A DNA stretch of 64,000 nt from an archaeon. GTDB taxonomy: Archaea > EX4484-52 > WAPT01. Shown in pieces: positions 2,781-28,228 of this stretch. Both the position numbers and the translations under genes were made by a program. Each line of letters opens with the position of its first letter. Position 1 is the first letter of the stretch. The stretch is taken from contig JAPDKB010000009.1 of NCBI GenBank assembly GCA_029258795.1, positions 32,001 through 96,000 of the forward strand, read 5' to 3'. The notes under the pieces are model-generated. The model was not told the origin of the DNA. It saw nothing but the letters and a program-made list of their open reading frames with translations, and ran no database searches.

Positions 2781-2899
2781 TGGTGCCCCCGCCGGGATTT
2801 TCAGCCGCTTATTCTCTCTCGAAGTAGAGCATGACGGCATTTGAACCCGGGTCATCGGCTCGAGAGGCCGATATCCTTGCCTGGCTAGACTACGGGGGC
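2781..2899 (-). tRNA. tRNA-Glu(CTC) with a 42-nt T-loop intron, CCA encoded
   Basis: Acceptor GCCCCCG/CGGGGGC, anticodon arm TCGGC-CTCTCGA-GCCGA, T-stem CCGGG/CCCGG interrupted. Confidence 0.95.
2798..2839 (-). other. tRNA intron at 59/60 (BHB)
   Basis: CCGGG-TTCA-[AAT]-GCCG...CGGC-TGAA-[AAT]-CCCGG bulge-helix-bulge; removal restores the loop TTCAAAT. Confidence 0.9.
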
Positions 2900-2946
2900 A
2901 CAATAACTTGTATTAAAAAAGCAGGAGAATTTTAAATGTTTCGTCT

Positions 2947-3174
2947 TCACTTCTTACCTCTGCTCTCCGCCGGAAGCAAGAATCTGCGGTACAACGCTAT
3001 CTCATCAATGAAGTCCTTATGGGTTATCATCAAACTTCTGCAGCAATACCTTGTTATTCCGAGTTCGTCCAGCACTTTAGAAGGATGCTTTCCCTTCTTG
3101 ACTTCCTGCTGAAACTTTTCCCATTTGTCAGCAAGCACCTTCCCACAGGAGATGCATCTTATGGGTATGATCAC
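2947..3174 (-). CDS. rpoN: RNA polymerase subunit N (Rpo10)
   Basis: IPIRCISCGK...LGITRYCCR. Confidence 0.97.
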   Translation of the reverse strand: MIIPIRCISCGKVLADKWEKFQQEVKKGKHPSKVLDELGITRYCCRSLMITHKDFIDEIALYRRFLLPAESRGKK

Positions 3175-3227
3175 GATATCTCACCTCACAGATTAAAGGT
3201 GTAAATAGGGGGATGGAAATATCCCCA

Positions 3228-3635
3228 TCATCTGTAGCTGGTCTGTTTGATTCTTCTCGGACCCTTCTTTGACCTTGATGGTTTGTGGGGCTCTGTTCTT
3301 CTCGGATCGTAAACAAGCATACCCCTGTCATATTCGAGGAACTTCTTCTTCAAGCTCTCGCTTTTGGTCAGTCTGACCAAAGCCCTCGCTATCGCCATCC
3401 TTATCGCTTCAGCTTGAGCATTAATCCCACCGCCTTTCACCACAATATCCATGTCCACCTTCTTTATCTTATCCTCTCCAGCTATTATTATGGGCTCCAT
3501 GATCTTCAGCTTCAGCATTTCGGGCTTGTAAATATCAAGCAACATCTTGTTTATTCTTATGGTTCCACTCCCCTCCCTAACATACGCTCTTGCTACAGCC
3601 GTCTTTCTCTTACCTGTTGTAACAAAAGGTTTCAT
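3228..3635 (-). CDS. rps9: 30S ribosomal protein S9
   Basis: GKRKTAVARA, GGGINAQAEAIR, C-terminal SYR. Confidence 0.97.
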   Translation of the reverse strand: MKPFVTTGKRKTAVARAYVREGSGTIRINKMLLDIYKPEMLKLKIMEPIIIAGEDKIKKVDMDIVVKGGGINAQAEAIRMAIARALVRLTKSESLKKKFLEYDRGMLVYDPRRTEPHKPSRSKKGPRRIKQTSYR

Positions 3636-3639
3636 AGTA

Positions 3640-4056
3640 TCACCACCTTGCACCCAACCATCTTGCAATGTCCTCAATTCTCACGAACTTCCTATCTCTG
3701 AGCTTGTCTGCGGTCCATTCGAGCTTGATCTTCTCAGCATCCTTATACTCGTCAGGTACGCCGATAAAGACCTTCACCCTTTTATATGCCTCTTTGCCGC
3801 GTGTTGTTTTGTATGGAAGCATCCCGCGTATTGCTCTTCTCACAATCCTATCGGGCATTCTGGGGAAAAACGGACCCTTGTATCTGTCTCCCACATCCCT
3901 TCTGGTTTTGTACTTATCTTTTATGTTCTCTTCATTCCCGCTTATTATGGCTTTTTCAGCATTAACTATAACGATTGTCTCTCCCTCCAGAGCTTTCTTC
4001 GCCACAAATGATGCCATCCTTCCCAAAATGGTGTCTGTAGCGTCTATAACCATCAT
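3640..4056 (-). CDS. rpl13: 50S ribosomal protein L13
   Basis: IDATDTILGRMAS, RRAIRGMLP. Confidence 0.97.
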   Translation of the reverse strand: MMVIDATDTILGRMASFVAKKALEGETIVIVNAEKAIISGNEENIKDKYKTRRDVGDRYKGPFFPRMPDRIVRRAIRGMLPYKTTRGKEAYKRVKVFIGVPDEYKDAEKIKLEWTADKLRDRKFVRIEDIARWLGARW

Positions 4057-4063
4057 TTTTCAT

Positions 4064-4432
4064 TCACCCTTTCATCAACCTTACTCCGCTTCCATTAGGG
4101 TTCTGTTCCAACAGGTCTCTTATAGGGAGCCACTTTCCTCCCGCTTCCTCAACTTTTTTTATGGCCGAAGGTGAAGCATCAAGTGATGCAACCACAAGTT
4201 TTTTGGTGAGATTCCCACCACCAAGCAGCTTGCCTGCCACAACAACAATCTCTCCTTCATTGCAGTACCTTTCCAGCTTTCCAACGTTTACGGGCTTCTT
4301 AATCCTTCTTGGCCTCTCAAGCTCATCTGCAAGCGCTCTCCACACCGGAGCTTTATTCTTCACGCTTGCTTTCCTCAATACCCTTATCAGCTCCCTCAAC
4401 ACAGGGTTGGTAGGGCCGGTCGGTTTCATCAT
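4064..4432 (-). CDS. rpl18e: 50S ribosomal protein L18e
   Basis: TNPVLRELI, APVWRALA, VNVGKL, GKLLGGG. Confidence 0.95.
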   Translation of the reverse strand: MMKPTGPTNPVLRELIRVLRKASVKNKAPVWRALADELERPRRIKKPVNVGKLERYCNEGEIVVVAGKLLGGGNLTKKLVVASLDASPSAIKKVEEAGGKWLPIRDLLEQNPNGSGVRLMKG

Positions 4433-4450
4433 GCCACCTCCATAGCTGTA

Positions 4451-4570
4451 TGGTGCAGGGGGTGGGATTTCCACGCTTCCGTGCAATTATCGGAAGCGGT
4501 TCGAACCCACGACGGGCCTGCGCCCACCGGATCTTAAGTCCGGCGCCTTTGACCTCTCGGCCACCCCTGC
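4451..4570 (-). tRNA. tRNA-Leu(TAA) with a 32-nt T-loop intron, CCA encoded
   Basis: GCAGGGG/CCCCTGC acceptor, CCGGA-CTTAAGA-TCCGG, long variable arm; usual position between rpoD and rpl18e. Confidence 0.95.
4468..4499 (-). other. tRNA intron at 59/60 (BHB)
   Basis: GTGGG-TTCG-[AAC]-CGCTTCCG...CGGAAGCG-TGGA-[AAT]-CCCAC. Confidence 0.9.
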
Positions 4571-4611
4571 ACAGCCCAGCAATCTTCACTTTTTGTGTAT
4601 GATTTTTAAAT

Positions 4612-5421
4612 TCATTTAAGCTGAGCTTTAACCTTCTCCTCAAACTCGTTTATTCTTTCAATCACACCTTGCACAGCATTCATCACTATCTGTGCAGGGG
4701 TCAGGCCGGAAACGCTTTCAACGTTGAATATGATGTGTGAAGAGTCTCCACGCACCTTTATCTTGCCTTCCGATCTCTCCTCACACAGTCCGCAGAGATC
4801 ACAGAGATAAGGATCTTTCAACACAGCTTTTCCGTCCTTGATTTCCAGAGCTCCTCTCGGGCAGAGCTTTTTAGCATCCACCTTTCCATCGAGCTTTTCG
4901 CTCTCCACAACAGGGAAGTACTGATAACCAACGACAGCGCTCTGCCATCTCGCATGTCTCGTTGCCTTGTCGAGTATTGCAACGGCTTCCAGCTCAATCT
5001 CCTGTCCTTCAAGCAGCTTGACTATTATCTCATCTCCATAGACGGGAGCAACATCCGGATTGTTCGACACAAGGTCTTTAGCATAGACCACACAGGGCCC
5101 CTTTTTCTTGAGCAGGAGCTTTGCGGTACATTTCATACAACCTTCTTCCTTGTTGCAATCACACTTCTCTCTCGGCACGTAGCGAAGCGGATCGAATTTT
5201 AGAGGGATAAGTCCTATTCTGTGTGCAAGAAGCTCGTTGTAAAGAGCGGAAGTGTTCTTGATAATGTCCACAAACTCCACTGCCATCACATAAACCTCGC
5301 TGTACATGGCTCTCCTTATAGCGTTCGCTATTGCAGGATTTATTCCCTTAACCTCAAACCTGATCTTCTCACCATCATCCTCAAGAATTTTAACATCAAA
5401 TCCGCTCTTGGCTTTTACCAT
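4612..5421 (-). CDS. rpoD: RNA polymerase subunit D (Rpo3)
   Basis: ANAIRRAM, NTSALYNELLAHRIGLIP, ferredoxin-like CDLCGLC. Confidence 0.97.
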   Translation of the reverse strand: MVKAKSGFDVKILEDDGEKIRFEVKGINPAIANAIRRAMYSEVYVMAVEFVDIIKNTSALYNELLAHRIGLIPLKFDPLRYVPREKCDCNKEEGCMKCTAKLLLKKKGPCVVYAKDLVSNNPDVAPVYGDEIIVKLLEGQEIELEAVAILDKATRHARWQSAVVGYQYFPVVESEKLDGKVDAKKLCPRGALEIKDGKAVLKDPYLCDLCGLCEERSEGKIKVRGDSSHIIFNVESVSGLTPAQIVMNAVQGVIERINEFEEKVKAQLK

Positions 5422-5426
5422 TCACA

Positions 5427-5840
5427 TCACACTCTCCTTCCTCTTCTTCCGCCGGGCTTTCTGGTTCTGTCGTGCGGAATGGGAGTCACATCCTCAATCT
5501 TACCGATCTTCAATCCTGCCTGAATAAGGGCTCTTATTGCTGGCTGAGCTCCCGGACCGGGTATTTTGGAGAGATGGCCTCCCGGAGCCCTGACGCGCAC
5601 GTGCACAGCAGTTATTCCCTTTTCAAGCGCTTCTTCAGCAGCCCTCTTGGCAGCGAGCATGGCCTGGTATGGTGCACCCTTCAACCTGCCCTTATCGGTA
5701 ACAAATCCACCCGAAACACGGGAAATCGTGTATGCTCCAGTAATGTCGGTTATGTGAACTATGGTGTTGTTAAAGCTGCTGTAGATGTGAGCTATTCCCC
5801 ACCTTTCCTGCTTTTCTTTTGTTGTCTTAGCTTTAGCCAT
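5427..5840 (-). CDS. rps11: 30S ribosomal protein S11
   Basis: [32 protein letters not shown]. Confidence 0.98.
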
Positions 5841-5860
5841 CCACCATCACCACTTTTTCA

Positions 5861-6412
5861 TCAGCTGCCTTCTCCACCGGCTTGTTCACCACCGCTTTTC
5901 TGCTCCGCAAAAAGACCGAAACCCTTCTCATACATCTCCTTAACAGAGGAATTCGGATGGAAATCTATCGAGTTTTCCTTATCTATGTTCACGATGTATC
6001 CCGGAGAGACAACACGCTGTCCATCCACAACTATGTGTCCATGAACTATGAACTGCCTTGCCTGCTTTATGGTTCTGGCAAGACCCTTTCTGTAAACAAG
6101 TGTCTGCAACCTTCTTTCAAGCAGGTCCTTGACGGTTATATCCAGAATGTCGTCAAGTGTTGCATCCTCTTTTACAAGACCCATCTCATAAGCTTTCCTT
6201 ATAAGAATCTTCTCTGCTTCCTCGTCAGGATTTGCGATGAGCTGCCTTGCTCTCCTTCTGAGCTTTCTCACTAGCTCTTCGGCTCTCCTTATCTCCTTCT
6301 TCCTTCTGAGCCCGTATATCCTCATCAACTTCCTTTCTTCTCTAATCCTTTCAGCATCCCATCTTTTGCGCGGGGATTTCCACTTTCTCTTCAGCTTGCG
6401 CGGATCACCCAT
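5861..6412 (-). CDS. rps4: 30S ribosomal protein S4
   Basis: [24 protein letters not shown]. Confidence 0.98.
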
Positions 6413-6426
6413 ATATCAACACCACA

Positions 6427-6885
6427 TCACTTCTTCTTTCTCTGCACACCAACAGTCATACCCTTCCTGAATCCGGTTCTCGTGCGCTGCCCTCTTACAG
6501 GCAGACCCATCTGGTGTCTCACTCCTCTGTAGCACTTAATTCTCATGAGTCGTGTTATGTCTTCCTTAACCCTCAGGTCGAGGTCAACTCCAACCAGATG
6601 CTCGTCCTTTCCTGTCTCTCTATCCTTCCTCCTGTTGAGCATCCATACGGGCATGCCATACTTGAGAGGGTCTTTAAGAGCATCCTCGATCTTCTTTATT
6701 TCCTCCTCGCTAAGCTCCTTCAGTTTCTTCTTCTCATCTATACCCAGAAGCCTGACCAACGCTCTTGCGAAATTGTAGCCAACACCCTTTATTCCCTGCA
6801 GAGCCATGTAAACATACCTATTTCCATCCAGATCCGTACCAGCAATACGTACGACCTCTTCAGCTCTTATTTCCTTTGCAGCCAT
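6427..6885 (-). CDS. rps13: 30S ribosomal protein S13
   Basis: IKGVG, NRRKDRETG, YRGVRHQMGLPVRGQRTR. Confidence 0.98.
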   Translation of the reverse strand: MAAKEIRAEEVVRIAGTDLDGNRYVYMALQGIKGVGYNFARALVRLLGIDEKKKLKELSEEEIKKIEDALKDPLKYGMPVWMLNRRKDRETGKDEHLVGVDLDLRVKEDITRLMRIKCYRGVRHQMGLPVRGQRTRTGFRKGMTVGVQRKKK

Positions 6886-7124
6886 CTTCACACCTCGCGA
6901 AACCCAACGAGTTCTTCCCGCCAGAAACGACCCGGATTTATGCCCCCGCAGCTTTTTCCCGGAGGCAACCGGGCCACGAAAATAACTTCCTCAATTTTAA
7001 TTCAAAAACGTGACAATTTATACTCACATAAAATTTAAAAAGGTTTTCAAATGTTCAAGCTGAAATTCCGGACAGAGGATGTTTTTCTTTATTAATGCCT
7101 TATTAATGATAAAAGTTTAAAAAT

Positions 7125-7730
7125 ATGCCAATACAAATGTGCCGCATGAAACTTGCGCCTAAAAATTTTGATGATGTTGAAATTGTCAAGGAATGCTTGA
7201 TCACGAGTTATAATCTTCACCATACCATCGAGATTGAGGGGAAAGCAGTAGGGGTTGCCGATTATTGGCCCAATATCAGAGAAAACATAGAGAGATTTTC
7301 CAAGTTTCTTTTTGAAACGGATAGGGGCGAGGGAACTATAATTTCGTGTAGCGAGTTGTATGATGGTGTGCGTGAGATAGTTATGCTCACAGAAATCAGG
7401 GAGATAACGGGTTTGACACCAAACTCAACCATTTATTTCGGAGGAAAAGCGGAGTTCCACCCAACGTTGGAGAAAATTTCTGCATCCTATAATCCTTACC
7501 CTCCCACCGTGCCAAGATACTCGTGGTGCGTGCTGGAATACATAATCCCTCCGGCAGATTCAACCTTCATCCTTACATCATCGAAAAAATTGGACGAAAT
7601 TTCGGAGAAAGAGTTGGAAGGGTTTGAGCGACAGCTGGAAATAAAGGATGAATTGTTGAAAAAACTCCAGGAAACATACATAAAAAAGAAGGAGCGCGTT
7701 AACTTTGAAATCAACAAACTTTATGTATAG
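7125..7730 (+). CDS. Hypothetical protein
   Basis: 201-aa ORF preceded by a TTTAAA box; no family recognised. Confidence 0.6.
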   Translation: MPIQMCRMKLAPKNFDDVEIVKECLITSYNLHHTIEIEGKAVGVADYWPNIRENIERFSKFLFETDRGEGTIISCSELYDGVREIVMLTEIREITGLTPNSTIYFGGKAEFHPTLEKISASYNPYPPTVPRYSWCVLEYIIPPADSTFILTSSKKLDEISEKELEGFERQLEIKDELLKKLQETYIKKKERVNFEINKLYV

Positions 7731-7738
7731 ATAAAAGT

Positions 7739-7753
7739 TTGGCACCGCGGGCA
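7739..7753. repeat. Degenerate direct repeat of the tRNA-Ser 3' end (att-like)
   Basis: ttggcaccgcgggca vs ttggcgccgcgggca at 9522-9536 (14/15 identical). Confidence 0.7.
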
Positions 7754-7852
7754 AACCCAAGGAACCGCCAGCAGGGCCCCTCTCCCCATACGAGGTTTGC
7801 AATTTACTCTTTAGGTTCTAGGGCTGAAGAACTTTATAAAGTTTGTTCTGAG

Positions 7853-8410
7853 TCATAAATCTCCGAATCTAAAAACTTCCAACTTCCGTTCCTTCAGATC
7901 CATTAGAAAAAACTTGAAATCATCGGATATGGTGATTTCAAAGAGGGATTTGTTTCTGCGCATCCAATCAACAAATTTCCTATCCGTTGTAAGAAACCCA
8001 TCAAGCCGGTTAGATACTGCTGTCAGCAGATGAAGAAGATCGTAGGTTTTCACGTTCTTTGTTAGCATTCCGAGAATCTTTTTATTCGCGAAAAGAAACA
8101 TCACATCACTCTCAACACCAACCCTTTCAAACCTGCTGAGGAAACTGGCAAATTCCTTTCCGAATTTTCTGAAGAAGGCTTCCGCTCTTTTCTTGGGATC
8201 TTCTATTACATCTCCGCAGAATTTCTTTATTATTTCCTTCTCCTTTTTCTTATAAAGAATCGTGAAGAAGAACTCTTCAAGCGTGAAGGGAGAGATACAG
8301 AAGGCCACATCTGCTTCCTTACCGAGCTCTTTTTCGATAATCTTCCATCCTTCTTGGGAGAAGAGAGCCATAAAGCCAGAAGTATCCAGATAAACTCTCA
8401 CACCGCTCAC
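7853..8410 (-). CDS. PIN-domain (VapC-like) ribonuclease
   Basis: VYLDTS, SPFTLEEF, YDLLHLLTA, FLTTDRKF acidic tetrad. Confidence 0.88.
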   Translation of the reverse strand: MSGVRVYLDTSGFMALFSQEGWKIIEKELGKEADVAFCISPFTLEEFFFTILYKKKEKEIIKKFCGDVIEDPKKRAEAFFRKFGKEFASFLSRFERVGVESDVMFLFANKKILGMLTKNVKTYDLLHLLTAVSNRLDGFLTTDRKFVDWMRRNKSLFEITISDDFKFFLMDLKERKLEVFRFGDL

Positions 8411-9099
8411 CGTCCTACCATGACGGGGATCCTCTCAGCATATTCCTTAAGTTCAACTACACCTCCCCTTCCGGGAGAGAACAGGTGAATGAATGTATGG
8501 AATATTCCTGTCAGCCGAGAAAGCTGCATGAGATTCATTCTCCTGTAACCACGGAAAGCAAGGTATAAAGCTATTATCGGCGCTTCGAAGATTATTATCT
8601 TTTCAGGGAACTTCTCAAATCCTTCTTCTGCCAGGGACAGATATTTCTCCTTCTTCATTTTTCTCAGTAGTTCGTAATCCATTCTTATCATTTTCGGATA
8701 CTCCTCGAGAACAGAGGCGAGATAGTATGATAGCGGATATATATCATCGGTTCTTCTGATCATTCCCTCAATTTTCTTCAGCTTTTCCTCAAAATCCCTG
8801 AACTCCCTCTCAGAAATTTCAACTGCTTTTATTGCTGTGTAATTCTTCCTCATTTTTTCCATGGTTTCCTCAGCATACTCTCTGAGCATCCCCCTATAAT
8901 CGGGAGAGTTCAGAATTTCGAATATTCTGGAGAGGTGAACCTCTATCTTATTCAGAGCCATTTCAGTTTCCTTAGATCTTCTTGCAGATTTCATATACCC
9001 AAGTCTGAATATCTCTGTGGGATACTCTCCCATTTTCTCTTTTAGCAAAGGCCTGTAAGCAAGAATCGAAGCAATTGCAACTTCTTGAACTTTCATCAT
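8407..9099 (-). CDS. Hypothetical protein coupled to the PIN gene (possible antitoxin)
   Basis: 4-nt start/stop overlap with the PIN gene; helical composition; start uncertain (ORF is open to 9237). Confidence 0.6.
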   Translation of the reverse strand: MMKVQEVAIASILAYRPLLKEKMGEYPTEIFRLGYMKSARRSKETEMALNKIEVHLSRIFEILNSPDYRGMLREYAEETMEKMRKNYTAIKAVEISEREFRDFEEKLKKIEGMIRRTDDIYPLSYYLASVLEEYPKMIRMDYELLRKMKKEKYLSLAEEGFEKFPEKIIIFEAPIIALYLAFRGYRRMNLMQLSRLTGIFHTFIHLFSPGRGGVVELKEYAERIPVMVGR

Positions 9100-9304
9100 G
9101 AATATTGTTAGGAACAAAAGTAATATATATGTATTTGGCAAATCCAAATTCTTGCTCTCATCGAAGAAGTTTATAATGTTTGGCATTTCTCGGTGGGAGG
9201 TCGAGCTACCATCATATAACTTCTTAATACCCTTCAATTTATCCTGAGTACGGTGTGTTCATACCACCAAATCCAAAAACCTTTCCAAATAAATTATTAT
9301 ATTG

Positions 9305-9469
9305 TTAGAACTCTCTATCATGAAAAAAGCGTTCTTTTGAGCAAGGAAGAAATTTTATCTCCAGAATTTCTCCTATGAGCTGTTTGTTTCTTTCAGAAAT
9401 GTTCGAACCCCTCAGAAGCTTGAGAGCATGTTCGTATCTTCTCCCGTATCCGTGAATGTCCTCGTTCAT
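9305..9469 (-). pseudogene. Truncated tyrosine integrase N-terminus
   Basis: MNEDIHGYGRRYEHALKLLRGSNISERNKQLI resembles the DIH.Y.RR.E...IS..NK.LI start of archaeal tRNA-associated integrases; no catalytic domain follows; lies just after the tRNA 3' end. Confidence 0.55.
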
Positions 9470-9522
9470 ACATAATGGAGTTTCCCTGGTCATAGATTGG
9501 GGGAGGCTCCGCTGGTTGCAAT

Positions 9523-9643
9523 TGGCGCCGCGGGCAGGATTTTCAGATGCGGGAAAATCAAAGTCCCACAACCTTCGAACCTGCGCGCCCTTACGGGCAC
9601 CGGCTCTCAAGGCCGGCGCACTACCAGGCTATGCGACCGCGGC
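9523..9643 (-). tRNA. tRNA-Ser(TGA) with a 34-nt T-loop intron, CCA encoded
   Basis: GCCGCGG/CCGCGGC acceptor, G73, CCGGC-CTTGAGA-GCCGG, variable arm GCCC-GTAA-GGGC. Confidence 0.95.
9540..9573 (-). other. tRNA intron at 59/60 (BHB)
   Basis: GCAGG-TTCG-[AAG]-GTTGTGGGA...TCCCGCATC-TGAA-[AAT]-CCTGC. Confidence 0.9.
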
Positions 9644-9697
9644 GCGGAAAAGACATGCTTGGCAGAGTTAAAAATAGCGCGAGAGCTTTTAAATTTT

Positions 9698-10303
9698 TTA
9701 GCCGAAGGGAGAATGCCTTAAATCCTTCTCTTTATATCCTAACCGTTTACCCACCTCGTTGGCTATAATCTCACCGCAAATGGTGGCTTTGAATTCGAAA
9801 GATGATCCCATGGACTTGTAGATTGGCGATTCTCCACTGTTGTTGTATTTATCGGAATGAGCTTTAAGCAAGAGATAAATGTCGGATAGCTCAGCCACAG
9901 GCGAATCAGGATTGCCCACTATGGAAGAGACGTAAATGTCGTGTTCTTTTGCTATGCGAATATCTTCCACAACCTTCCTCGTTTTCCCGCTTCCTGAAAC
10001 AGCCAGCATCACATCATTATCGCTCACTGGCGGATGGGTGTAAGTGTTATCCGATGTGACAACAACTCTCTTACCCATCTGAGCTAAGCGCATACCACTA
10101 TACTTACTACTTTCCAAACTTCTTCCCGTGGCGTTGAGCCAGATTGTATTTGCTTCATACATTTTATCCACAATCCTTCCAAAAACATCTGCCTGCCCTT
10201 CCAGTTCATGCTGCAGTTCATCTAGAATTTTTTTGTAAAAATTAATAGGTCCTGCTATGTCAATTTTACAAGAAATCAGCGACTCTCTATTTAATAAGGG
10301 CAT
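9698..10303 (-). CDS. SIS-domain sugar isomerase (6-phospho-3-hexuloisomerase-like)
   Basis: GRS...MRLAQMG, AVSGSGKT, SPVAELSD, MGSSFE. Confidence 0.8.
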   Translation of the reverse strand: MPLLNRESLISCKIDIAGPINFYKKILDELQHELEGQADVFGRIVDKMYEANTIWLNATGRSLESSKYSGMRLAQMGKRVVVTSDNTYTHPPVSDNDVMLAVSGSGKTRKVVEDIRIAKEHDIYVSSIVGNPDSPVAELSDIYLLLKAHSDKYNNSGESPIYKSMGSSFEFKATICGEIIANEVGKRLGYKEKDLRHSPFG

Positions 10304-10597: not shown

Positions 10598-11560
10598 TTA
10601 TTTCTTTTTCTTCCAGAGCTTCGGATAAACGCCCTTTTCCATGACCACTCTGTTTATCGTGCATGCAACACCGCTCCTTCTTCCAGCCATCTCTTCAGCA
10701 TTCATTTCTGCCCTGCCCAAGGCAACGAGCTCGCCCTTCAAGCTCAGGATTGCCACAACGTCACCTTTCTTTACACTCTTTTCCACCTTGGAAATCCCGC
10801 CCACATGAAGCTGCGCACCATAACAAATTGCTGAGATAGCACTGTCTTTCACCAAAACCTTCTTCACATCTTTGAGCAGGTATTCCACAGGCAGCACAAC
10901 CTCCCTGAGCTTCGCATCTTTCCCTTCCTCTTTCCATATTGCATAAGCGTCAACAACATCTTGAAGGTAGCATGCTTTATCCTCAGTTATGCTGCCCACA
11001 GCGGTCCTCCTCAGCTCCTGAAGATGGGCATTCACACCCATGGCTCTACCCATATCCACACACAGCTTTCTTATGTAGGTGCCTGCTTCACATCTAACGC
11101 GGAAGAGCACATATCTCCCCTCAATCTCCAACACCTCGATGGAATAAATCTTCCTTTTTCTCGGCTTTCTCGCAACAGCACTCCTCAAGGGTGGAACCTG
11201 CGTTATCGTGCCCTCAAAATTCTTCATCACTTCCCTTATCCTGCTTTCCTCAACATCCCCATGCAACTTCATTAACGCAACATATTCCTTATCGCTTCTC
11301 GCAAGAAGCTGGGTAAGCTTGGTGGCGTGGTTCAATAGGATGACAAGCACACCGGTGGCATTCGGGTCAAGCGTTCCGGTCTGACCCGCTTTCCTCACTT
11401 CCAGAATATCTTTAAGCCATGCCACCACCTGGTGACTTGTTGGGCCGCGCGGCTTATCAACGATAACAGCGCCATACTTCAAAAGCTCTTCCACGGGTCT
11501 TTCGTGAGGATAATACCCATGTTCTGGAGAAGTTTCTGCCTCCTCTCTCACAATCCACAT
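10598..11560 (-). CDS. cbf5: H/ACA pseudouridine synthase Cbf5 (TruB)
   Basis: DKPRGPTSHQV, GTLDP, GTYIRKLC, PUA domain. Confidence 0.97.
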   Translation of the reverse strand: MWIVREEAETSPEHGYYPHERPVEELLKYGAVIVDKPRGPTSHQVVAWLKDILEVRKAGQTGTLDPNATGVLVILLNHATKLTQLLARSDKEYVALMKLHGDVEESRIREVMKNFEGTITQVPPLRSAVARKPRKRKIYSIEVLEIEGRYVLFRVRCEAGTYIRKLCVDMGRAMGVNAHLQELRRTAVGSITEDKACYLQDVVDAYAIWKEEGKDAKLREVVLPVEYLLKDVKKVLVKDSAISAICYGAQLHVGGISKVEKSVKKGDVVAILSLKGELVALGRAEMNAEEMAGRRSGVACTINRVVMEKGVYPKLWKKKK

Positions 11561-20520: not shown

Positions 20521-20528
20521 TCACCCCT

Positions 20529-20936: not shown

Positions 20937-20939
20937 CCG

Positions 20940-21654: not shown

Positions 21655-21658
21655 CGGC

Positions 21659-21964
21659 TCACTCCACTATCGAGCTTTCCGGAAAGCCCTCCTCGATGAG
21701 CATCTTTTTGACCTTCAGGCGATGATCTCCCTGCAGTTCTATCTTACCGTCCTTGTAGGTACCACCACATGCAAGTTTTTTCTTGAACTTCTTGAGCAGT
21801 GATTTGATGTCTATGCTCTTTTCATCAAGCCCTTCTATAATCGTTATGGTTTTGCCGAATTTCCTCTTTTCCACATAAATTTTAATTTTCTGCTTTTCCC
21901 TCGCTATGGTTTCGCAGATGCACAGGTCTTTTGGAAGACCACAAACATTACATATCTCCGTCAT
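21659..21964 (-). CDS. Translation initiation factor SUI1 / aIF1
   Basis: [25 protein letters not shown]. Confidence 0.96.
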
Positions 21965-22179
21965 TTCTTACTAAGCACCTCTTTTTCCCTTTTTATGGTC
22001 AATATCCTTGCTATAGTTCTTTTTATCTCTCTGACCTTACCTGGATTGTCCGGCACGCCTCCCACCTTTGCCTTTGCTCTTTCTTTCATCAGCTCCATTC
22101 TCAAATCTGCGAGTTTCTTCTCAAGTTCTTCGTCACTCATGTCTCTTATCTGTGTTGCCTTGAGTATTGCCATGATCAT
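21961..22179 (-). CDS. rpl29: 50S ribosomal protein L29
   Basis: [26 protein letters not shown]. Confidence 0.96.
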
Positions 22180-23066: not shown

Positions 23067-23073
23067 CCTTCCT

Positions 23074-23505
23074 TCACCTTTGCTCCAAAACTACTGAGAT
23101 GTGCACGCTCTTTCTTTTCTGCCCTCTGAGGGGTGAGCGCCTTGGCCTGTAAAATGTGGGGGCTTTCATCACCAAAAATGATTTGATGAAGAGCTTTGAA
23201 ACATCAAGTCCCTGATTCTCAGCGTTTTTCACAGCACTGTTGATGAGATCAAGTATTTCCTTTGCAGCGTTAACTGGATACCTTCCAGCCCCGATACCTG
23301 GCTTGTGAGCCACATCTCTGTTGAACCTGCCGAATGGCACAGCTCTCTTCATCTCAATGACATCCTGAAGGAAGCGCCTTGCTTTCTCAACGTTCATTCC
23401 CTTTATAGCTTTTCCTATTTCCACAGAGGCTTTCCATGAAATCCTTACATACCTTTTGCATGCTCTTGCCATTCTTGAAGGATCGTAATCCTGCACGTTA
23501 TACAT
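23074..23505 (-). CDS. rpl22: 50S ribosomal protein L22
   Basis: ISWKASVEI, GRYPVNAA, NAENQGL. Confidence 0.96.
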   Translation of the reverse strand: MYNVQDYDPSRMARACKRYVRISWKASVEIGKAIKGMNVEKARRFLQDVIEMKRAVPFGRFNRDVAHKPGIGAGRYPVNAAKEILDLINSAVKNAENQGLDVSKLFIKSFLVMKAPTFYRPRRSPLRGQKRKSVHISVVLEQR

Positions 23506-23517
23506 CTCGGCTCACCT

Positions 23518-23907
23518 TCACTTCCTACCTACGTGCTTTGTTGATTTGGATGCACCTATACCTGGACCGCTGTGCTGCACGGGCTTTCTGGTTAGAGCAA
23601 ATTCTCCCAACCTGTGCCCTATCATTTCAGCGGTTATGGTGACGGGCACAAACTCTTTACCATTGTGGACGCCTATAGTGCGCCCCACCATTTCGGGCAG
23701 GATGATCATGTCTCTGCAGTGAGTTTTTATGAACTTGTCCTTGGAGGTTTTCCTTATTTTTTGAAGCAGCTTCTTCTCAGCTTCAGTGAGCCCTCTCTTC
23801 AAGTGTCTCCTAGCCCTTGCTGTCAGTAATTCAGCTAACTCTTCCAAGCTCATCTTCTGCAATTCTTCAAGCGTGTAACCTCTGAACCTGAACTCCTTTC
23901 GAGCCAT
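23518..23907 (-). CDS. rps19: 30S ribosomal protein S19
   Basis: [23 protein letters not shown]. Confidence 0.97.
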
Positions 23908-23914
23908 TTACCAT

Positions 23915-24628
23915 TCACCTCTTCCTTCTACCGGTTCTTCTCGCGGCTATGCTACCCACCTTTCTGCCGGGCGGTGCACGCCTGCTAACAGTTTTGGGCA
24001 CACCAAAGCTCTTACCACCGAACTTGTGATCACATGCGTTCATGGCTTTAGCCCTCGTTCTCGGGTACTTCTTACCTCTCGCATGCATCGCGTGCCACTT
24101 ATTGCCAGCTTTCACAAATGGCTTTTTCGGCCTCTCTCCACCTGCAACTATACCTATTGTGGCTCTGCAGTTCGGATTGAGCCCCTTGGTTTTTCTTGAT
24201 GGGAATTGCACTGTGACTTTATCAACATCTCTTGAAAGGACTATGGCATAACCACCGCTTGCCCTCACGAGCTTTCCACCATCGCCAGGAACAACCTCTA
24301 TGTTAAACACGGGTGTACCTTCAGGTATGTCTTTAAGGGGCAGCACATTCCCTATCTTTAGCTGTGCTCCCTCTCCAACTTCCACAACGTCTCCCGTCTT
24401 CACACCTTCACTTGCAATGAAATACCATTTCTCACTCGTGCCATCGAATTTAACGAGTGCAAGAGGAGCTGTTCTGCCTGGATCATCCACTATATCTATT
24501 ATCTTACCTTTAAGGTTGCCCTTCTGAAGGGGAGGATATTTAACATCAGCAACGTAGTTGAAGCTTGGCACTAAGTAGGTTTTGGATACGCCCCTTCCAC
24601 GGCGCTGAGCGATTATTCTTGTACCCAT
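23915..24628 (-). CDS. rpl2: 50S ribosomal protein L2
   Basis: QRRGRG, DPGRTAP, AMNACDHKFGG, PPGRKVG. Confidence 0.98.
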   Translation of the reverse strand: MGTRIIAQRRGRGVSKTYLVPSFNYVADVKYPPLQKGNLKGKIIDIVDDPGRTAPLALVKFDGTSEKWYFIASEGVKTGDVVEVGEGAQLKIGNVLPLKDIPEGTPVFNIEVVPGDGGKLVRASGGYAIVLSRDVDKVTVQFPSRKTKGLNPNCRATIGIVAGGERPKKPFVKAGNKWHAMHARGKKYPRTRAKAMNACDHKFGGKSFGVPKTVSRRAPPGRKVGSIAARRTGRRKR

Positions 24629-24643
24629 ACATCACCACCATCA

Positions 24644-24922
24644 TCAGATTATGCCTAATTTAGCAGCTATGTCTGTAGCATTGTAATCCTTGCTTACGGC
24701 TATGTATGCCTTCTTCCTGCCCTTCGCATCTATCAACGTTCTAACCTTTCTGACCTTAACCTTAAACATGTTTTCAAAAGCTTTCTTTATCTTTTCCTTG
24801 TTAGCTCTTCTATCCACTATAAATGTTATGGTGTTCTCCCTCTCTATGAGAGAGATTGCCTTTTCTGTAAGCACGGGATAAAGCAACACTTCAAATGGGT
24901 CGTTAACCTTAACTTCAGCCAT
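24644..24922 (-). CDS. rpl23: 50S ribosomal protein L23
   Basis: PVLTEKA, NTITFIVD, KKAYI. Confidence 0.97.
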   Translation of the reverse strand: MAEVKVNDPFEVLLYPVLTEKAISLIERENTITFIVDRRANKEKIKKAFENMFKVKVRKVRTLIDAKGRKKAYIAVSKDYNATDIAAKLGII

Positions 24923-24923
24923 T

Positions 24924-25751
24924 TCAGCTCACCGCGAAAAGCTTTTTCTCCTCCAGCTCTTTTATGGCATTCTCACTCCAGATGCTCAACCTTCCTGCAT
25001 GACCACCCGGAGCCAGCATCTCCACGTTGAGATCCTTCACAAGGCAGACATCAACACCGGGTATGTTTCTTGCTGCCTTGAATATTCCATCATCCTTACT
25101 CACCACTATGAGGGGGCCTTTCCTCTTCTTGTATCTCCTTCCTCTCATCTTACCCTTTCCGGCCCTGTATCTTTTCTCGCGCACCCTTTCCAGCTCTTCC
25201 TCCAGACCCAGCTTTTTGAGCAGGTTTTCAAGCTCTTTTGTCTTCTTCACACTTTCAAGCTCGCTAACAACGACTATTGGTAGCTTTTCAACTTTATCCG
25301 CTCTGTGTCCTCTCTTAAGCACGAGGGTTTTCCTTGCAAGAGCGGCTATGGCAGCAAGTATAGCTTTCCTCCTCTCCTTCTTGTTTATCTTCTGCTCCCA
25401 CTTCTTCTCAGCTTTTGGTGGATGAGCTTTCCTACCCTTGACAGCATGTGGCACAAACCTCACAACTCCGGTCATGTGGCCTGAACCAACTCTTATGCGT
25501 GGCAGCCTCGCTATACCTCTGTTTATCCAGGCCCCGTAAGCGCCTCTTCTTCCTCTGTAATCAGCACTAGTTCTCTTTCCTGCCAGAGGATCAGCTCCAT
25601 AGGGCTGCCTCCTGTGGCTCATGATGGCAAGGAAAGCTCTGATTATGAGATCATGCCTTACCTCCTCGCTGAAGTGCTCGGGGAGAGTGATCTCGCCCTT
25701 CTTGCTTCCGTCCAGACCATAAACAGGAACTTTCAACTCAGCCATAGCCAT
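24924..25751 (-). CDS. rpl4: 50S ribosomal protein L4
   Basis: AGKRTSA, RAGKGKMRGRRY, LAPGGHAGRL. Confidence 0.97.
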   Translation of the reverse strand: MAMAELKVPVYGLDGSKKGEITLPEHFSEEVRHDLIIRAFLAIMSHRRQPYGADPLAGKRTSADYRGRRGAYGAWINRGIARLPRIRVGSGHMTGVVRFVPHAVKGRKAHPPKAEKKWEQKINKKERRKAILAAIAALARKTLVLKRGHRADKVEKLPIVVVSELESVKKTKELENLLKKLGLEEELERVREKRYRAGKGKMRGRRYKKRKGPLIVVSKDDGIFKAARNIPGVDVCLVKDLNVEMLAPGGHAGRLSIWSENAIKELEEKKLFAVS

Positions 25752-25752
25752 T

Positions 25753-26766
25753 TCACCATATCAGCTGCTTGATCTCGGGAGGTTCTGTTGGGGGCTCATG
25801 AGACCTTATAGCATATCTTATCCTCACCAATCTCTTTGATGGCCCAGGAACAGAACCATGGATAATTATATAATCTGATTTCACAACACCATAGTGTTTC
25901 CAGCCACCGGGTCTTGCAACACGGGAAGCGTCATTTCCAACCTCCATAATCCACTTGTTGTACTCGGTCCTTGTGTGATACCCCATCTGACCCATCTGAG
26001 GAACGGTCCACATAGTTCTTGCAGGGTGCCATGGACCGAGAGTTCCAGCTTTTCTCCTTACCTTCCTTGCCTTGTGGTGCAGAAGCTTCACACCAAATCT
26101 CTTTACGGAGCCCTGGAATCCCTTACCCTTGGTAACGGCCGTGACATCAACAAAAACACCGGGAGAAAAGACATCGGAAATGCGAAGTTCCTTGCCGAGA
26201 AGGGAGGAAACCTCATCGAGAACAGCAGAAAGGGAATCAGAAGCAGAATCGGAAGAAGCGTCGTTTACCCAGTTTGTGGGGAAATAGTGAATCTCAAAGA
26301 TCTCAGGTGTCTTCTTTCCTATTCCTGCAAGCTTCGGCTGCGTTGCAACAATCAGCTTAACCTTATCAAAACCATTTTTGACCTTATCAAGCACAGCATT
26401 TTTATCCTTGTTCGGCTTTATTCCGGTTATTTTTCGTGCAACCTCCTTGTCTATCTTCTCACTCCACAGTTCTGTTATTGCTTCGTATCCATATGGTGTC
26501 TTTTTATAGAAGCGAGCAGCAAGAACCTTGAGAGGTGGTGTTTCTATCAGGGTTGCGGGCTCCACAATTTCCTTGTTCTTGAACATACCCTCCCTTTTTT
26601 CTATGTAATCAACCTGAAGCATCCCTACTTTGTATCCGGCAAATTCCACCACATTCTTGCCATCAACAGCAGGAACATGCCTGACTCTAGCATAAATGCG
26701 CTTAGCCCTAACTCTGGGGGAAAACTGCAATGATCCTCTCCTCGGGTGGTAATAGCTCATTTCCAC
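25753..26766 (-). CDS. rpl3: 50S ribosomal protein L3
   Basis: PRRGSL, AGYKVGM, TKGKGFQG, GQMGYHTRTEYNK. Confidence 0.98.
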   Translation of the reverse strand: MEMSYYHPRRGSLQFSPRVRAKRIYARVRHVPAVDGKNVVEFAGYKVGMLQVDYIEKREGMFKNKEIVEPATLIETPPLKVLAARFYKKTPYGYEAITELWSEKIDKEVARKITGIKPNKDKNAVLDKVKNGFDKVKLIVATQPKLAGIGKKTPEIFEIHYFPTNWVNDASSDSASDSLSAVLDEVSSLLGKELRISDVFSPGVFVDVTAVTKGKGFQGSVKRFGVKLLHHKARKVRRKAGTLGPWHPARTMWTVPQMGQMGYHTRTEYNKWIMEVGNDASRVARPGGWKHYGVVKSDYIIIHGSVPGPSKRLVRIRYAIRSHEPPTEPPEIKQLIW

Positions 26767-27003
26767 ACACCACGCAGCATATTCATGGCTCGTAGCTTGT
26801 GTTCACAAGATTTGTAATCATGAAAATGATAACATTTAAATATTTTGGTGATATCTGGCTGGAGGCAACAACCTATACATACCCTCATACAAAAAAAGCG
26901 ACAGCTTTTAATCAAACACCAAAATTTTTAAACGTTGTTATTCTCGCCTTCACGACTTTAAAGAAAAAATATTTTTAAAGTAGCGTCGGCAATAAAATAC
27001 CCA

Positions 27004-27603
27004 ATGACTGAAAAACTCAGCGAAAAGGTGAAGAAATTCCTTGTAGTGAAAAAGAAAGTAAAACTGGAGGAAATATCCAGCTATAAAACTCAGATTCTCA
27101 TAATAGGGTCAACGATTTCCTTCCTTCTCGGAGGTTTTGACCTCTTACTTCCTTTTCTTCTTGCATGGTTTTCATACTTTATATTTGAGAGTTACGCATG
27201 GGAATTTGGTTTGGATAATCTTGGGGTGGAGCTCATAACACTGGCATGTGTGCTCGTGGGGATGAAATTCGAACCAGCATTTTCCTTCATTTACGCGTAT
27301 GTTACAATAGGCACAATGTCATCCATAGCAAAGTTTGTTGATCCCGACTCCGATGAGATATCAAATCCATTCGGAAGCTATGCTTTTGGGTATGGTGTTG
27401 CTGCGCTTTCAGCATCTTATCTAGCAGGCAACCTACCTTTCCCAGAACTTCTGGTTGCTTCTGCCATACTTGCCAATCTCGCGAGATTTGCTTTTGACCT
27501 CTTGGTTTACAGAAGTATTGATGATATTATATGGAGGGTGGGTAATATTTTCTTTAACTGCATTATTGCAATGTTCTTTTCATTTCTCAGCATGGTTATC
27601 TAG
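27004..27603 (+). CDS. Hypothetical multi-pass membrane protein
   Basis: About 6 hydrophobic segments. Confidence 0.7.
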   Translation: MTEKLSEKVKKFLVVKKKVKLEEISSYKTQILIIGSTISFLLGGFDLLLPFLLAWFSYFIFESYAWEFGLDNLGVELITLACVLVGMKFEPAFSFIYAYVTIGTMSSIAKFVDPDSDEISNPFGSYAFGYGVAALSASYLAGNLPFPELLVASAILANLARFAFDLLVYRSIDDIIWRVGNIFFNCIIAMFFSFLSMVI

Positions 27604-28080
27604 GGTTTTTCGCAATCTTGTGTAGATGGGCGTGTATTTTCGTTTCTCGTAAAATCTGATCGAGTTGTGATTTCCAACGTAAGCGTCAAGCTCAACAATT
27701 TTGATGTCCATCTCATGCGCTTTCTTCTCGGCTGCTGAAAGCAATGCACTCCCCACCCCTTTGGAACGCCACTCTTCAACCACATAGATATTATCTACAT
27801 ACAACACCTTTTCCCGCCTATAGATTCCAGCATAAGTTATGACTCTCCCGCTCACCACACCGATAATCTTCCCATCCTCACTCTCAGCCACGAGCAACAA
27901 TTTCGTACCCTTTTTCATACCTCTAATACAAGAGTTAACGTAGTTCTTCAGGCTACCCTCACAATCATCTCCACTTTTGAGAAGGGGATCGTAATACCTC
28001 TCCTCTTCCTGCATCAGCTTGAAAAGTCGCAGTATATGGTCCGAGTCATCATCTTCGGCTTCCCTTATTTCCGCATGCAT
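27580..28080 (-). CDS. GNAT-family N-acetyltransferase
   Basis: IYVVEEWRSKGVGSALL motif A, N..SIRFYEK. Confidence 0.92.
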   Translation of the reverse strand: MHAEIREAEDDDSDHILRLFKLMQEEERYYDPLLKSGDDCEGSLKNYVNSCIRGMKKGTKLLLVAESEDGKIIGVVSGRVITYAGIYRREKVLYVDNIYVVEEWRSKGVGSALLSAAEKKAHEMDIKIVELDAYVGNHNSIRFYEKRKYTPIYTRLRKTLDNHAEK

Positions 28081-28110
28081 GAAGGGATCACACCATCAAA
28101 CAAAAATCTA

Positions 28111-28228
28111 TGGGCCGGCCAGGATTTTCAGCTGCGGAGTTCCAGCATATTCAGCTTTGCTCCGCAGCAATCGAACCTGGGACCTCTCCCGCGTCAGGGG
28201 AGCGTCATAACCCCTAGACCACCGGCCC
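28111..28228 (-). tRNA. tRNA-Val(GAC) with a 45-nt T-loop intron, CCA not encoded
   Basis: GGGCCGG/CCGGCCC acceptor, CTCCC-CTGACGC-GGGAG. Confidence 0.95.
28125..28169 (-). other. tRNA intron at 59/60 (BHB)
   Basis: CCAGG-TTCG-[ATT]-GCTGCGGAG...CTCCGCAGC-TGAA-[AAT]-CCTGG. Confidence 0.9.

Follow-up and report, generated by a model that had tools for sequence, protein, structure and literature searches.

The window analysed here, a 64,000-nucleotide stretch of an archaeal contig, raises the question of why each of its tRNA genes carries an insertion inside the T-loop, and how far through the genome this arrangement extends.

T-loop introns in the window and across the genome

A sequence-only reading had claimed that all four tRNA genes of the window hold a bulge-helix-bulge (BHB) intron at position 59/60, and direct reading of the sequence bore this out, with a 3-4-3 motif in four of four and the T-stem serving as the outer helix. 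All four genes lie on the minus strand and were assigned by sequence reading together with ARAGORN, run on the spliced forms. The tRNA-Glu(CUC) gene (2781-2899, CCA encoded) contains a 42-nt intron at 2798-2839 with the motif CCGGG/TTCA/AAT ... TGAA/AAT/CCCGG. The tRNA-Leu(UAA) gene (4451-4570, CCA encoded), located between rpoD and the L18e gene, contains a 32-nt intron at 4468-4499 (GTGGG/TTCG/AAC ... TGGA/AAT/CCCAC), and the tRNA-Ser(UGA) gene (9523-9643, CCA encoded) a 34-nt intron at 9540-9573 (GCAGG/TTCG/AAG ... TGAA/AAT/CCTGC). The tRNA-Val(GAC) gene (28111-28228), which has no encoded CCA, contains a 45-nt intron at 28125-28169 that belongs to an 11-member intron family. Excised in silico, the introns left Glu, Leu, Ser and Val forms of 77, 88, 87 and 73 nt that ARAGORN accepted as tRNAs. 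The genes share one layout, T-stem / TTCR / 3-nt bulge / intron-internal helix ... / YGRA / 3-nt bulge / T-stem, with the central helix fully paired (4/4) in each. As claimed, none has a canonical 37/38 intron, all four anticodon loops being intact, and three of the introns share an end (Glu GCGGCTGAAAA, Ser GCATCTGAAAA, Val GCAGCTGAAAA), while the Leu intron differs. ARAGORN, the Rfam tRNA model at E<=1 and our own scans yielded no further tRNA gene in the window.

The expectation that standard finders may miss such genes was confirmed: ARAGORN reported one of the four with a wrong 3' end, tRNA-Leu(UAA) at 4487-4571, the call terminating within the intron, and the Rfam model at its gathering score reported none. 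At E<=1 the latter gave Leu 27.4, Glu 25.6 and Ser 18.5 bits, below the 29-bit cut-off, and missed Val.

We then considered the whole assembly, a metagenome bin of 23 contigs, 96% complete, from a hydrothermal vent metagenome. By curated count, 30 of its 46 archaeal-type tRNA genes are interrupted at 59/60. The T-loop is intact in the remaining 16, nine of which are intron-free; the others carry 37/38 or D-loop introns, and one has an unplaced insert in the anticodon arm. Disrupted genes total 37 of 46, and 30 of the 44 introns counted lie at 59/60. Tabulated genome-wide, the position is dominant and most tRNA genes have it, so the proposal of a genome-wide sweep of one intron position holds as to the site; as to extent, the sweep is incomplete, with 16 T-loops untouched.

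The pattern exceeds chance expectation. A motif-free scan for T-loop-interrupted tRNAs accepted 31 in the real genome versus 3 in the reversed genome (27 versus 1 when a fully paired central helix was also demanded), retrieving 29 of the 30 curated genes; the remaining one, Arg-TCG, was spotted by eye. Across the 30 genes the central helix is paired at 4/4 in 27 and at 3/4 in three, the outer helix (T-stem) is 100% paired, and pairing reaches 90.9% over the first three positions of the inner helix. Ser-CGA, Ser-GGA, His, Asp and Ser-UGA have a weak inner helix beside the bulge, with 0 or 1 contiguous pair; in the last, the helix spans 9 bp with a U-U mismatch at the second pair, so that 8/9 pairs form. 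In the 30-gene alignment, standard pairs occupied 97.0% of pair cells versus 81.3% in shuffles (0 of 500 shuffles as high) and fell to 28-62% when the 3' partners were shifted by 1-3 columns; 7 of the 12 pairs had changed on both sides. When the T-arm segments of the window genes were folded for minimum free energy, the outer and inner helices formed in all four, and in three the central 4-bp helix stayed open. Fold z values were -3.0 for tRNA-Glu (T-stem and inner helix formed) and -5.1 for tRNA-Val; support for the predicted central helix rests on comparison, not on folding energy.

Predicted splicing of the interrupted genes

The explanation that we consider very probably correct, reading from sequence, is that these are ordinary archaeal protein-spliced introns at 59/60, a site that would have been colonised repeatedly and recently in this species. 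In the precursor, the T-stem would form the outer helix of the BHB motif, T-loop residues 54-57 (UUCR) would pair with the final four intron-internal residues, YGRR, to give the 4-bp central helix, and an intron-internal hairpin would supply the inner helix. The first 3-nt bulge would comprise residues 58 and 59 plus the first intron base, and the second the last two intron bases plus residue 60. Because residues 54-57 would be paired with the intron, T-arm folding would await splicing, and the T-loop/D-loop elbow could form only afterwards. Since every part of the motif comes from the intron or from universal tRNA sequence, a 59/60 intron could work in any tRNA, whereas a 37/38 intron is tied to a single tRNA, whose anticodon loop it has to pair with.

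The candidate enzymes are both encoded. EndA is a single gene (C6:35295-35885) for a 197-aa alpha-type protein without tandem repeat, with PF02778 at residues 19-86 and PF01974 at 96-189. A second homologue or beta paralogue was found neither by Pfam at E<=0.1, nor by protein search, nor by running a profile built from 15 EndAs on 8993 open frames (next E 0.42), although an assembly of 96% completeness may lack a divergent beta subunit. The encoded enzyme is of neither the crenarchaeal (alpha-beta)2 type nor the ARMAN epsilon2 type. In the C-terminal domain, an insertion, NPYKKGEKSPRE, aligns ungapped to the loop of the Nanoarchaeum equitans alpha protein (3iey_A), and Methanocaldococcus jannaschii 1a79 has a 7-residue gap at this site. 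The insertion is kept in the clade, in 10 of 14 aligned relatives; Methanolobus, Methanoperedens and two other MAGs have a shorter form. Judged by its position, it is probably the "L3" loop of PMC5829648, as far as the available part of that paper describes it, which would make the enzyme a single alpha-type EndA of the DPANN L3 architecture. Such an enzyme, presumably a homotetramer, would cleave at both bulges, and RtcB, for which there is one gene (C3:134423-135718, 582 bits), would then ligate the exons and restore a 7-nt T-loop. The suggestion that a relaxed-specificity endonuclease is required goes too far: the window motifs are strict or nearly strict 3-4-3, and among the other 26 only some are relaxed, the relaxed features being a 3/4 central helix (three genes) and an inner helix that is weak beside the bulge (five genes).

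Intron relatives and the origin of the T-loop introns

A covariance model of the motif (R1) was searched across the order. Because it was trained on the present genome (G000), R1 is biased towards it; it found 28 sites there, 6 and 7 in two genomes of the same genus (G001 and G002), and 0-9 per genome in 39 further genomes of the order. Since R1 missed 2 of its 30 own training sequences and one 38-nt T-loop intron in G014, the counts in relatives are lower bounds. Gene-by-gene inspection covered the best 30 tRNA loci of each congener. ARAGORN called the T-loop of 7 of the 11 family hosts intact in G001 and that of 6 in G002; the other hosts lie outside the loci inspected. The tRNA-Val(GAC) orthologues of both congeners are intron-free, with the T-loop TTCGATT read base by base, as are both tRNA-Ser(UGA) orthologues. 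In G001 the tRNA-Glu orthologue is intron-free, and in G002 it carries a 48-nt intron of unrelated sequence at this site; tRNA-Leu(UAA) has in both a 31-nt intron, again at 59/60 and of a different sequence. Farther out, the order includes at least five more genomes whose Val-GAC is intron-free and one whose Ser-UGA is. Exons are 95-100% conserved relative to the congeners; the intron-free orthologues differ from the genes studied here by exactly the predicted intron, and the spliced T-loops are identical to theirs. As to the junction, the Val comparison permits only 59/60 or 60/61, and the Ser comparison disfavours 60/61.

Within the genome, 35 of 435 intron pairs exceeded the 99.9th percentile of shuffled identity (0.67), giving clusters of 11, 3 and 2. 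Hosts in the cluster of 11 have six different T-stem sequences, and the introns of Ala-CGC, Val-GAC, Leu-CAA and Leu-CAG are 85-97% identical although their hosts are unrelated and differ in T-stem, which argues for recent copying. The tRNA-Val(GAC) intron shares 97% identity in its core with that of tRNA-Ala(CGC), which lies on a different contig (blastn, 92.9% over 42 nt). No relatives of the Glu, Leu and Ser introns of the window were detectable elsewhere in the genome, so that family copying accounts for only part of the intron set. We read this as a probable lineage-specific burst of 59/60 intron gains in this species, in which recent and repeated events, some of them copying within one family, would have filled the site in 30 of 46 genes. 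The case for gain over loss is one of parsimony, drawn from a few genes rather than from a tree.

A more specific version, to which we give slightly less than an even chance, is that a mobile, T-loop-specific intron cassette is or was very recently active in this DPANN species, having colonised at least 11 different tRNAs while leaving two congeners nearly free. The cassette would consist of its own inner hairpin plus a YGRRAA tail, and the tail would pair with the universal UUCR of any T-loop, making the cassette spliceable from any tRNA.

Neutral or selfish spread competes with the idea that the introns were spread by selection because they disrupt the tRNA attachment sites of integrating viruses and plasmids (Randau and Soll); the sequence-only reading, too, had the introns breaking such sites. 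The hydrothermal vent origin of the organism is in keeping with selection, which we nevertheless regard as unlikely: there is no integrase between the two tRNA-Pro(UGG) copies that flank hypE, hypF and hypD, congeners with few 59/60 introns evidently persist, and a self-sufficient motif would account for the site preference without selection.

Less probable again is an ancestral origin of the 59/60 introns, in the genus or the order, followed by loss of most of them in the two congeners, either through recombination with spliced tRNA that had been reverse-transcribed or through precise deletion, with no burst of gains here. Such introns do occur in several families of the order, Arg-GCG, Ser-GCU and Leu-UAA have one in all three genomes of the genus, and the congener assemblies are smaller (about 0.9 Mb versus 1.17 Mb). 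Leu-UAA has a 37/38 intron in the congeners that is absent here, which indicates intron turnover in both directions. Against ancestry, neither the congeners nor the outgroup genomes seen have an intron in Val-GAC or Ser-UGA, the high identity among introns of the four unrelated tRNAs named above points to recent copying, and more than 20 precise losses would be required in each of two independent congeners.

That the interrupted genes are pseudogenes or assembly artefacts with working tRNAs elsewhere is extremely improbable, for although the assembly is a fragmented and not quite complete bin with at least one foreign-looking contig (C11), the insert structure is constrained and shows compensatory changes, the same architecture recurs in independent assemblies of relatives, the exons are conserved as stated, and no intact copy was found in the assembly for eight amino acids. 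Indeed, among the genes found, every one for His, Cys, Asp, Trp, Pro, Ser and Leu and for the two Glu anticodons is interrupted, and these genes must therefore yield working tRNAs.

Comparison with known systems and implications

Introns at 59/60, intron transposition and the association of L3-bearing alpha4 enzymes with disrupted tRNA genes have all been published already; this genome is an extreme case. Fujishima, Sugahara, Tomita and Kanai (2010, Mol Biol Evol) reportedly described transposed tRNA introns in Thermoproteales, which likewise involve near-identical introns across tRNA specificities that are absent in close relatives, implying recent copying. Those organisms, however, are Crenarchaeota having an (alpha-beta)2 enzyme with a CSL loop and introns at many positions, including the canonical one, whereas here the host is a DPANN archaeon and the family is confined to 59/60.

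In Candidatus Micrarchaeum acidiphilum ARMAN-2, a 59/60 intron was cleaved in vitro by the organism's own enzyme (Fujishima et al. 2011, PMC3239211). According to the available part of that paper, the two organisms share DPANN membership, a genome of about 1 Mb, 59/60 introns, some two-intron genes, a tRNA-Ile(UAU) with a 37/38 intron, and disruption of over half of the tRNA genes (56% in ARMAN-2 versus 37/46 here). The same portion describes a three-unit epsilon2 enzyme with an ASL/L2 loop and introns at various positions, often relaxed, in contrast to the single 197-aa alpha with only an L3-type insertion, the 30 of 44 introns at one position and the mostly strict motifs found here. Kaneta et al. 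2018 (PMC5829648), in the sections available, associated L3-bearing alpha4 EndAs with DPANN lineages that have more disrupted tRNA genes, and also noted them in Hadesarchaea; the present genome resembles these cases in its single alpha with a C-terminal insertion in common with the Nanoarchaeum equitans alpha and in its many disrupted tRNA genes. That survey, in the same sections, covers four DPANN genomes, the present lineage not among them, and reports no assay of an L3 alpha4 enzyme. In Asgard archaea, many tRNA introns were missed by annotation software (bioRxiv 10.64898/2026.10.13.758758), and the accessible text of this preprint describes T-arm insertions with mostly canonical motifs and repeated, recent gains at reused positions, albeit in another superphylum with another enzyme and at many positions versus the one dominant site here. 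A 2014 review (PMC4090602) called it unknown how archaeal tRNA introns move.

For annotation, the consequence is that two thirds of this organism's tRNA genes are unseen or mis-called by standard finders; eight amino acids would seem to have no tRNA in the genome, and DPANN bins of this sort could be wrongly judged for completeness or auxotrophy. For tRNA maturation, the T-loop, which is the elbow partner and the target of modification at 54, 55 and 58, would be absent before splicing, so that in most tRNAs here splicing would have to precede both these modifications and elbow formation. All translation in this organism would then depend on one small EndA cutting the T-arm, and the genome is a strong case on which to test the published proposal that the L3 alpha4 endonuclease handles non-canonical introns. 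For evolution, 30 sites versus 6 or 7 within one genus, together with near-identical copies in unrelated tRNAs, provide clean data on how fast and by what mechanism tRNA introns are gained, and, if the mobile cassette is real, the genus would be a natural before-and-after system for the movement of archaeal tRNA introns.

The T-arm motif and splice junctions of the window genes

Direct reading of the sequence reproduced the four minus-strand tRNA genes of the sequence-only reading, namely tRNA-Glu(CUC) (2781-2899), tRNA-Leu(UAA) (4451-4570), tRNA-Ser(UGA) (9523-9643) and tRNA-Val(GAC) (28111-28228), and re-reading gave the same intron lengths of 42, 32, 34 and 45 nt, respectively. Two further statements of that reading also held: the anticodon loops are unbroken in all four genes, which leaves no intron at position 37/38, and GCRNCTGAAAA forms the 3' end of three of the four introns. 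Every one of these genes has the T-stem 5' strand followed by TTCA or TTCG, three unpaired bases and an intron-internal hairpin, and then by TGAA or TGGA, three unpaired bases with a final T, and the T-stem 3' strand. This layout is the counterpart of the classic 37/38 motif, to which it runs parallel in its 5-bp stem, in the pairing of loop bases 1-4 with the intron and in the junction after loop base 6. Thermodynamic folds of the four segments contained the T-stem and the inner helix (z-scores -3.0 to -5.1), and in three of them the A/U-rich central helix did not form at minimum free energy, so that this helix rests on comparison rather than on energy. When 30 curated T-arm segments of the genome were aligned, standard pairs occupied 97.0% of pair cells compared to 81.3% in shuffles, pairing dropped to 28-62% once the 3' partners were slid, and 7 of the 12 pairs displayed changes on both sides.

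Splicing endonuclease cleaves after the second base of each bulge, and this placement of the cut is supported by intron-free orthologues in the two congeners, G001 (90% complete) and G002 (94% complete). Both lack any insert in tRNA-Val(GAC) and tRNA-Ser(UGA), the exons of which differ from those of the genome under study (G000) by 0-2 bases within the gene, and the presence or absence of the intron is precise. The congener Val T-loop reads TTCGATT, which the G000 gene yields only with a cut at 59/60 or 60/61, and in the Ser and Leu comparisons a T at position 60, matching the relatives, is obtained only if the cut falls at 59/60.

We also compared contigs of four DNA runs with positions 2600-10000 of the window. 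One contig each from runs X2 and X3 joined 9542 to 9577, omitting 34 nt, the length of the Ser intron (shorter side 20 letters, 85% likeness); this joint probably derives from the intron-free tRNA-Ser of related organisms, of the kind present in both congeners. The depth peaks over the tRNA genes of this region reflect tRNAs of other organisms. Separately, a contig of X2 weakly joined 7047 to 9523 (shorter side 29 letters, 85% likeness), omitting 2475 nt (7048-9522) that end exactly at the tRNA-Ser 3' end and may be a strain-variable stretch abutting this gene; the segment contains open frames of 185 and 276 aa, and a search with the 276-aa frame gave no Pfam match.

All four tRNA genes share the minus-strand orientation of their neighbours, with tRNA-Leu flanked by rpoD and the L18e-L13-S9-rpoN genes, tRNA-Glu coming after rpoN, and a methionyl-tRNA synthetase gene at 29096-30715. 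At the 3' end of tRNA-Val(GAC) (28108-28111), TAG replaces the CCA encoded in both congeners; CCA is encoded in 27 of the 30 T-loop-interrupted genes of G000, the exceptions being Val-GAC, Ile-UAU and His.

Genome-wide extent of 59/60 introns

Standard tRNA finders miss or mis-call such genes, as the sequence-only reading had anticipated: ARAGORN found one of the four in the window and placed its end inside the intron, and Rfam at its gathering score found none. At E ≤ 1, the Rfam tRNA model scored Leu at 27.4, Glu at 25.6 and Ser at 18.5 bits (cut-off 29 bits) and missed Val. With its intron option, ARAGORN listed 27 genes over the whole genome, several of them wrong. Even on spliced forms its anticodon calls were wrong for several genes (Ala-GGC as Thr, Leu-GAG as Ser, and false 9-12-nt introns in class II tRNAs), and these were corrected by reading the sequences.

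Both strands of the assembly, which comprises 1.17 Mb in 23 contigs, is scored 96% complete and includes the window as C5:32001-96000, were scanned with our own procedures, one using a strict motif and one motif-free. The strict scan (three outer, four central and two inner pairs; introns of 11-200 nt) produced 86,333 candidates, from each of which the intron was excised in silico and the product tested by ARAGORN. By itself it recovers 22 of the 30 genes, and it missed the window Ser-UGA because of a U-U mismatch, so the motif-free scan was added, in which every G+C-rich 5-nt stem with a T-loop-like start was joined to each complementary 5-mer within the following 300 nt. This accepted 31 interrupted T-loops (2 of them spurious alternative registers) in the real genome compared to 3 in the reversed genome, or 27 compared to 1 when a fully paired central helix was required.

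After doubtful cases had been read by eye, the tally came to 46 archaeal-type tRNA genes, 30 of which carry a 59/60 intron of 24-52 nt: Pro-CGG, Pro-GGG, two Pro-UGG, all five Leu, all four Ser, both Glu, Gly-UCC, Gly-CCC, Ala-GGC, Ala-CGC, Arg-GCG, Arg-UCG, Thr-GGU, Ile-UAU, one Met, Cys, Asp, Trp, His, Val-GAC and Gln-UUG. A second intron is present in seven of these, at 37/38 in Trp, Ala-GGC, Ile-UAU, Met and Leu-CAA, in the D-loop in Arg-UCG and 3' of the anticodon loop in Leu-GAG. The T-loop is intact in the other 16, comprising intron-free genes (Gly-GCC, Gln-CUG, one Met, Ile-GAU, Val-UAC, Ala-UGC, Asn, Phe and a Gly(UCC)-like gene at C3:58039-58111 in which A takes the place of U before the anticodon), genes with a 37/38 intron only (Tyr, Lys-CUU, Thr-UGU), genes with a D-loop intron (Arg-UCU, Arg-CCU, Val-CAC) and an odd tRNA-like gene at C3:58968-59096, in which the acceptor and T arms are Glu-like, the anticodon stem is extended to 8 bp and ~57 nt are inserted. 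Overall, 37 of the 46 genes contain an interruption, and site 59/60 accounts for 30 of the 44 counted introns. No gene was found in this tally for Lys-UUU, Thr-CGU, Arg-CCG or a third CAU. For eight amino acids only interrupted genes were found, so the interrupted genes cannot be dead. The genome-wide sweep of one intron position proposed from the window thus stands for most tRNA genes when positions are tabulated over the whole genome, but it does not extend to the 16 with intact T-loops.

The D-loop introns (~36-50 nt) lie in Arg-UCU (C5:23285-23410), Arg-CCU (C3:79312-79436), Arg-UCG (C1:64103-64263) and Val-CAC (C2:52503-52625), those of Arg-UCU and Arg-CCU being clearly related in sequence. 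TGATGAG and CTGA motifs occur inside the 37/38 introns of tRNA-Met (74 nt; C2:176574-176773) and tRNA-Leu(CAA) (55 nt; C3:113040-113230); in other archaea, box C/D guide RNAs with motifs like these sit in tRNA introns. tRNA-Ile(UAU) (C2:124013-124172) combines a 47-nt 37/38 intron with a 39-nt 59/60 intron, and the available text on ARMAN-2 (PMC3239211) likewise describes an intron-containing tRNA-Ile(UAU). Four intron-free tRNA genes (Thr, Gly, Tyr, Thr) lie within 330 bp at a contig end outside the window (C11:165-495) and were left out of the tally. This tRNA-Tyr has a long variable arm, which we take to be the bacterial type, so the 9-kb contig looks foreign and probably does not belong to the archaeal bin.

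Intron families and turnover within the order

Intron cores were compared without their constrained parts (first base and last six), and 35 of 435 pairs exceeded the 99.9th percentile (0.67) of shuffled identity. Eleven introns form one cluster (Ala-CGC, Cys, Glu-UUC, Gly-CCC, Gly-UCC, Leu-CAA, Leu-CAG, Met, Pro-CGG, one Pro-UGG and Val-GAC of the window), with six different T-stem sequences among the hosts; the Val-GAC and Ala-CGC introns have a core identity of 97% (92.9% over 42 nt by blastn). Ala-GGC, Thr-GGU and Asp form a second cluster. Once the constrained ends are set aside, nothing in the genome is related to the Glu, Leu and Ser introns of the window, except that Glu-CUC and Trp reach a borderline 0.71. 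The two tRNA-Pro(UGG) genes (C3:46240-52214) are nearly identical in their exons and share 25 nt of downstream sequence, and they differ in their 59/60 introns, of 48 and 42 nt; an integrated element between them was ruled out, as the stretch separating the copies carries hypE, hypF and hypD but lacks an integrase.

A MITE-like repeat was ruled out as well: no copy of any of the four window introns occurs in G000 other than in tRNA genes, and R1, a covariance model of the T-arm plus intron motif, matched 28 of its 30 training sites there and nothing else, all of them tRNA T-arms. Self-splicing introns were ruled out by the small size of 24-52 nt.

For the cross-genome comparison, a pattern-based count was rejected at an estimated ~1 chance match per genome, and R1 was used instead. 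Across 42 genomes of the order, it matched 6 sites in G001 and 7 in G002, with 0-9 in each of the remaining 39 (maximum 9 in G007, zero in 12), counts that are lower bounds because the model was trained on G000, the scan filters were stricter and G014, which has a 38-nt T-loop intron, gave zero matches. When the 30 best tRNA loci per congener were examined one gene at a time, four T-loop introns were identified in each, and the T-loop is intact in 7 (G001) and 6 (G002) of the 11 hosts of the large family. tRNA-Glu(CUC) has no intron in G001 and an unrelated 48-nt intron at the same site in G002. In both congeners, tRNA-Leu(UAA) has a 31-nt 59/60 intron of different sequence from that of G000, together with a 22-nt 37/38 intron that G000 lacks, which indicates intron turnover in both directions within the genus. 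Inserts at 59/60, from 33 to 161 nt long, also interrupt Glu genes in several further families of the order, which makes the site a hot spot for the whole order, and the species under study is its extreme case.

Splicing enzymes and the proposed fate of the T-loop

The genome encodes the ligase RtcB and one splicing endonuclease (EndA) gene of 197 aa, with N-terminal and catalytic domains, adjoining tRNA-Phe (C6:35295-35885); no second EndA homologue was detected by Pfam, by protein search or by a 15-EndA profile against 8993 open frames of the assembly. Among solved structures, it is closest to the fusion enzyme of Methanopyrus kandleri (5x89), the homotetramer of Methanocaldococcus jannaschii (1a79) and the alpha subunit of Nanoarchaeum equitans (3iey_A). 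EndA architecture, marked for classification in the sequence-only reading, proved to be a single alpha-type gene with a lysine-rich insertion, NPYKKGEKSPRE, which aligns with the N. equitans loop and falls in a gap of 1a79. This insertion is shortened in Methanolobus and Methanoperedens and kept in relatives recorded as Nanobdellati, Nanohaloarchaea or Aenigmatarchaeota, one of them 90% identical, so that a change of enzyme does not account for the proposed intron burst in this species. The available text of Kaneta et al. 2018 (PMC5829648) names the insertion the L3 loop and describes alpha4 EndAs with this loop from several DPANN lineages, where they go along with a larger number of disrupted tRNA genes.

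As far as the available texts go, 59/60 introns cleaved in vitro are described for ARMAN-2 (PMC3239211), intron copying between tRNA genes for Thermoproteales (cited in PMC3239211 and PMC4090602), where the review PMC4090602 calls the way introns move unknown, and repeated recent gains, with T-arm insertions overlooked by annotation, in an Asgard preprint (10.64898/2026.10.13.758758). A keyword search found no literature on T-loop introns of Nanohaloarchaeota or Aenigmarchaeota, the label '59/60' not being usable as a term. Judged against this published text, 59/60 introns, intron copying, L3 alpha4 enzymes and repeated recent gains are each already in print, and the tRNA introns of G000 are an extreme instance of a published phenomenon.

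In the proposed mechanism, EndA would cut both bulges and RtcB would join the exons. The tRNA's own T-stem would serve as the outer helix and the near-universal UUCR as the exon half of the central helix, the remainder being intron-borne, and site 59/60 may be favoured because no part of the motif depends on the identity of the tRNA. Residues 54-57 would be locked in the central helix of the precursor, so that the T-loop and elbow would form only after splicing. The window also encodes a pseudouridine synthase of the Cbf5/TruB type (10598-11557, minus strand), at a distance of 1 kb from tRNA-Ser, and enzymes of this family form pseudouridine 55 in the T-loop. Collectively, the 59/60 introns of this archaeon are real and well supported in sequence, their splicing is predicted, and for most of its tRNAs the T-loop, as the target of pseudouridine 55, would exist only once the intron had been removed.
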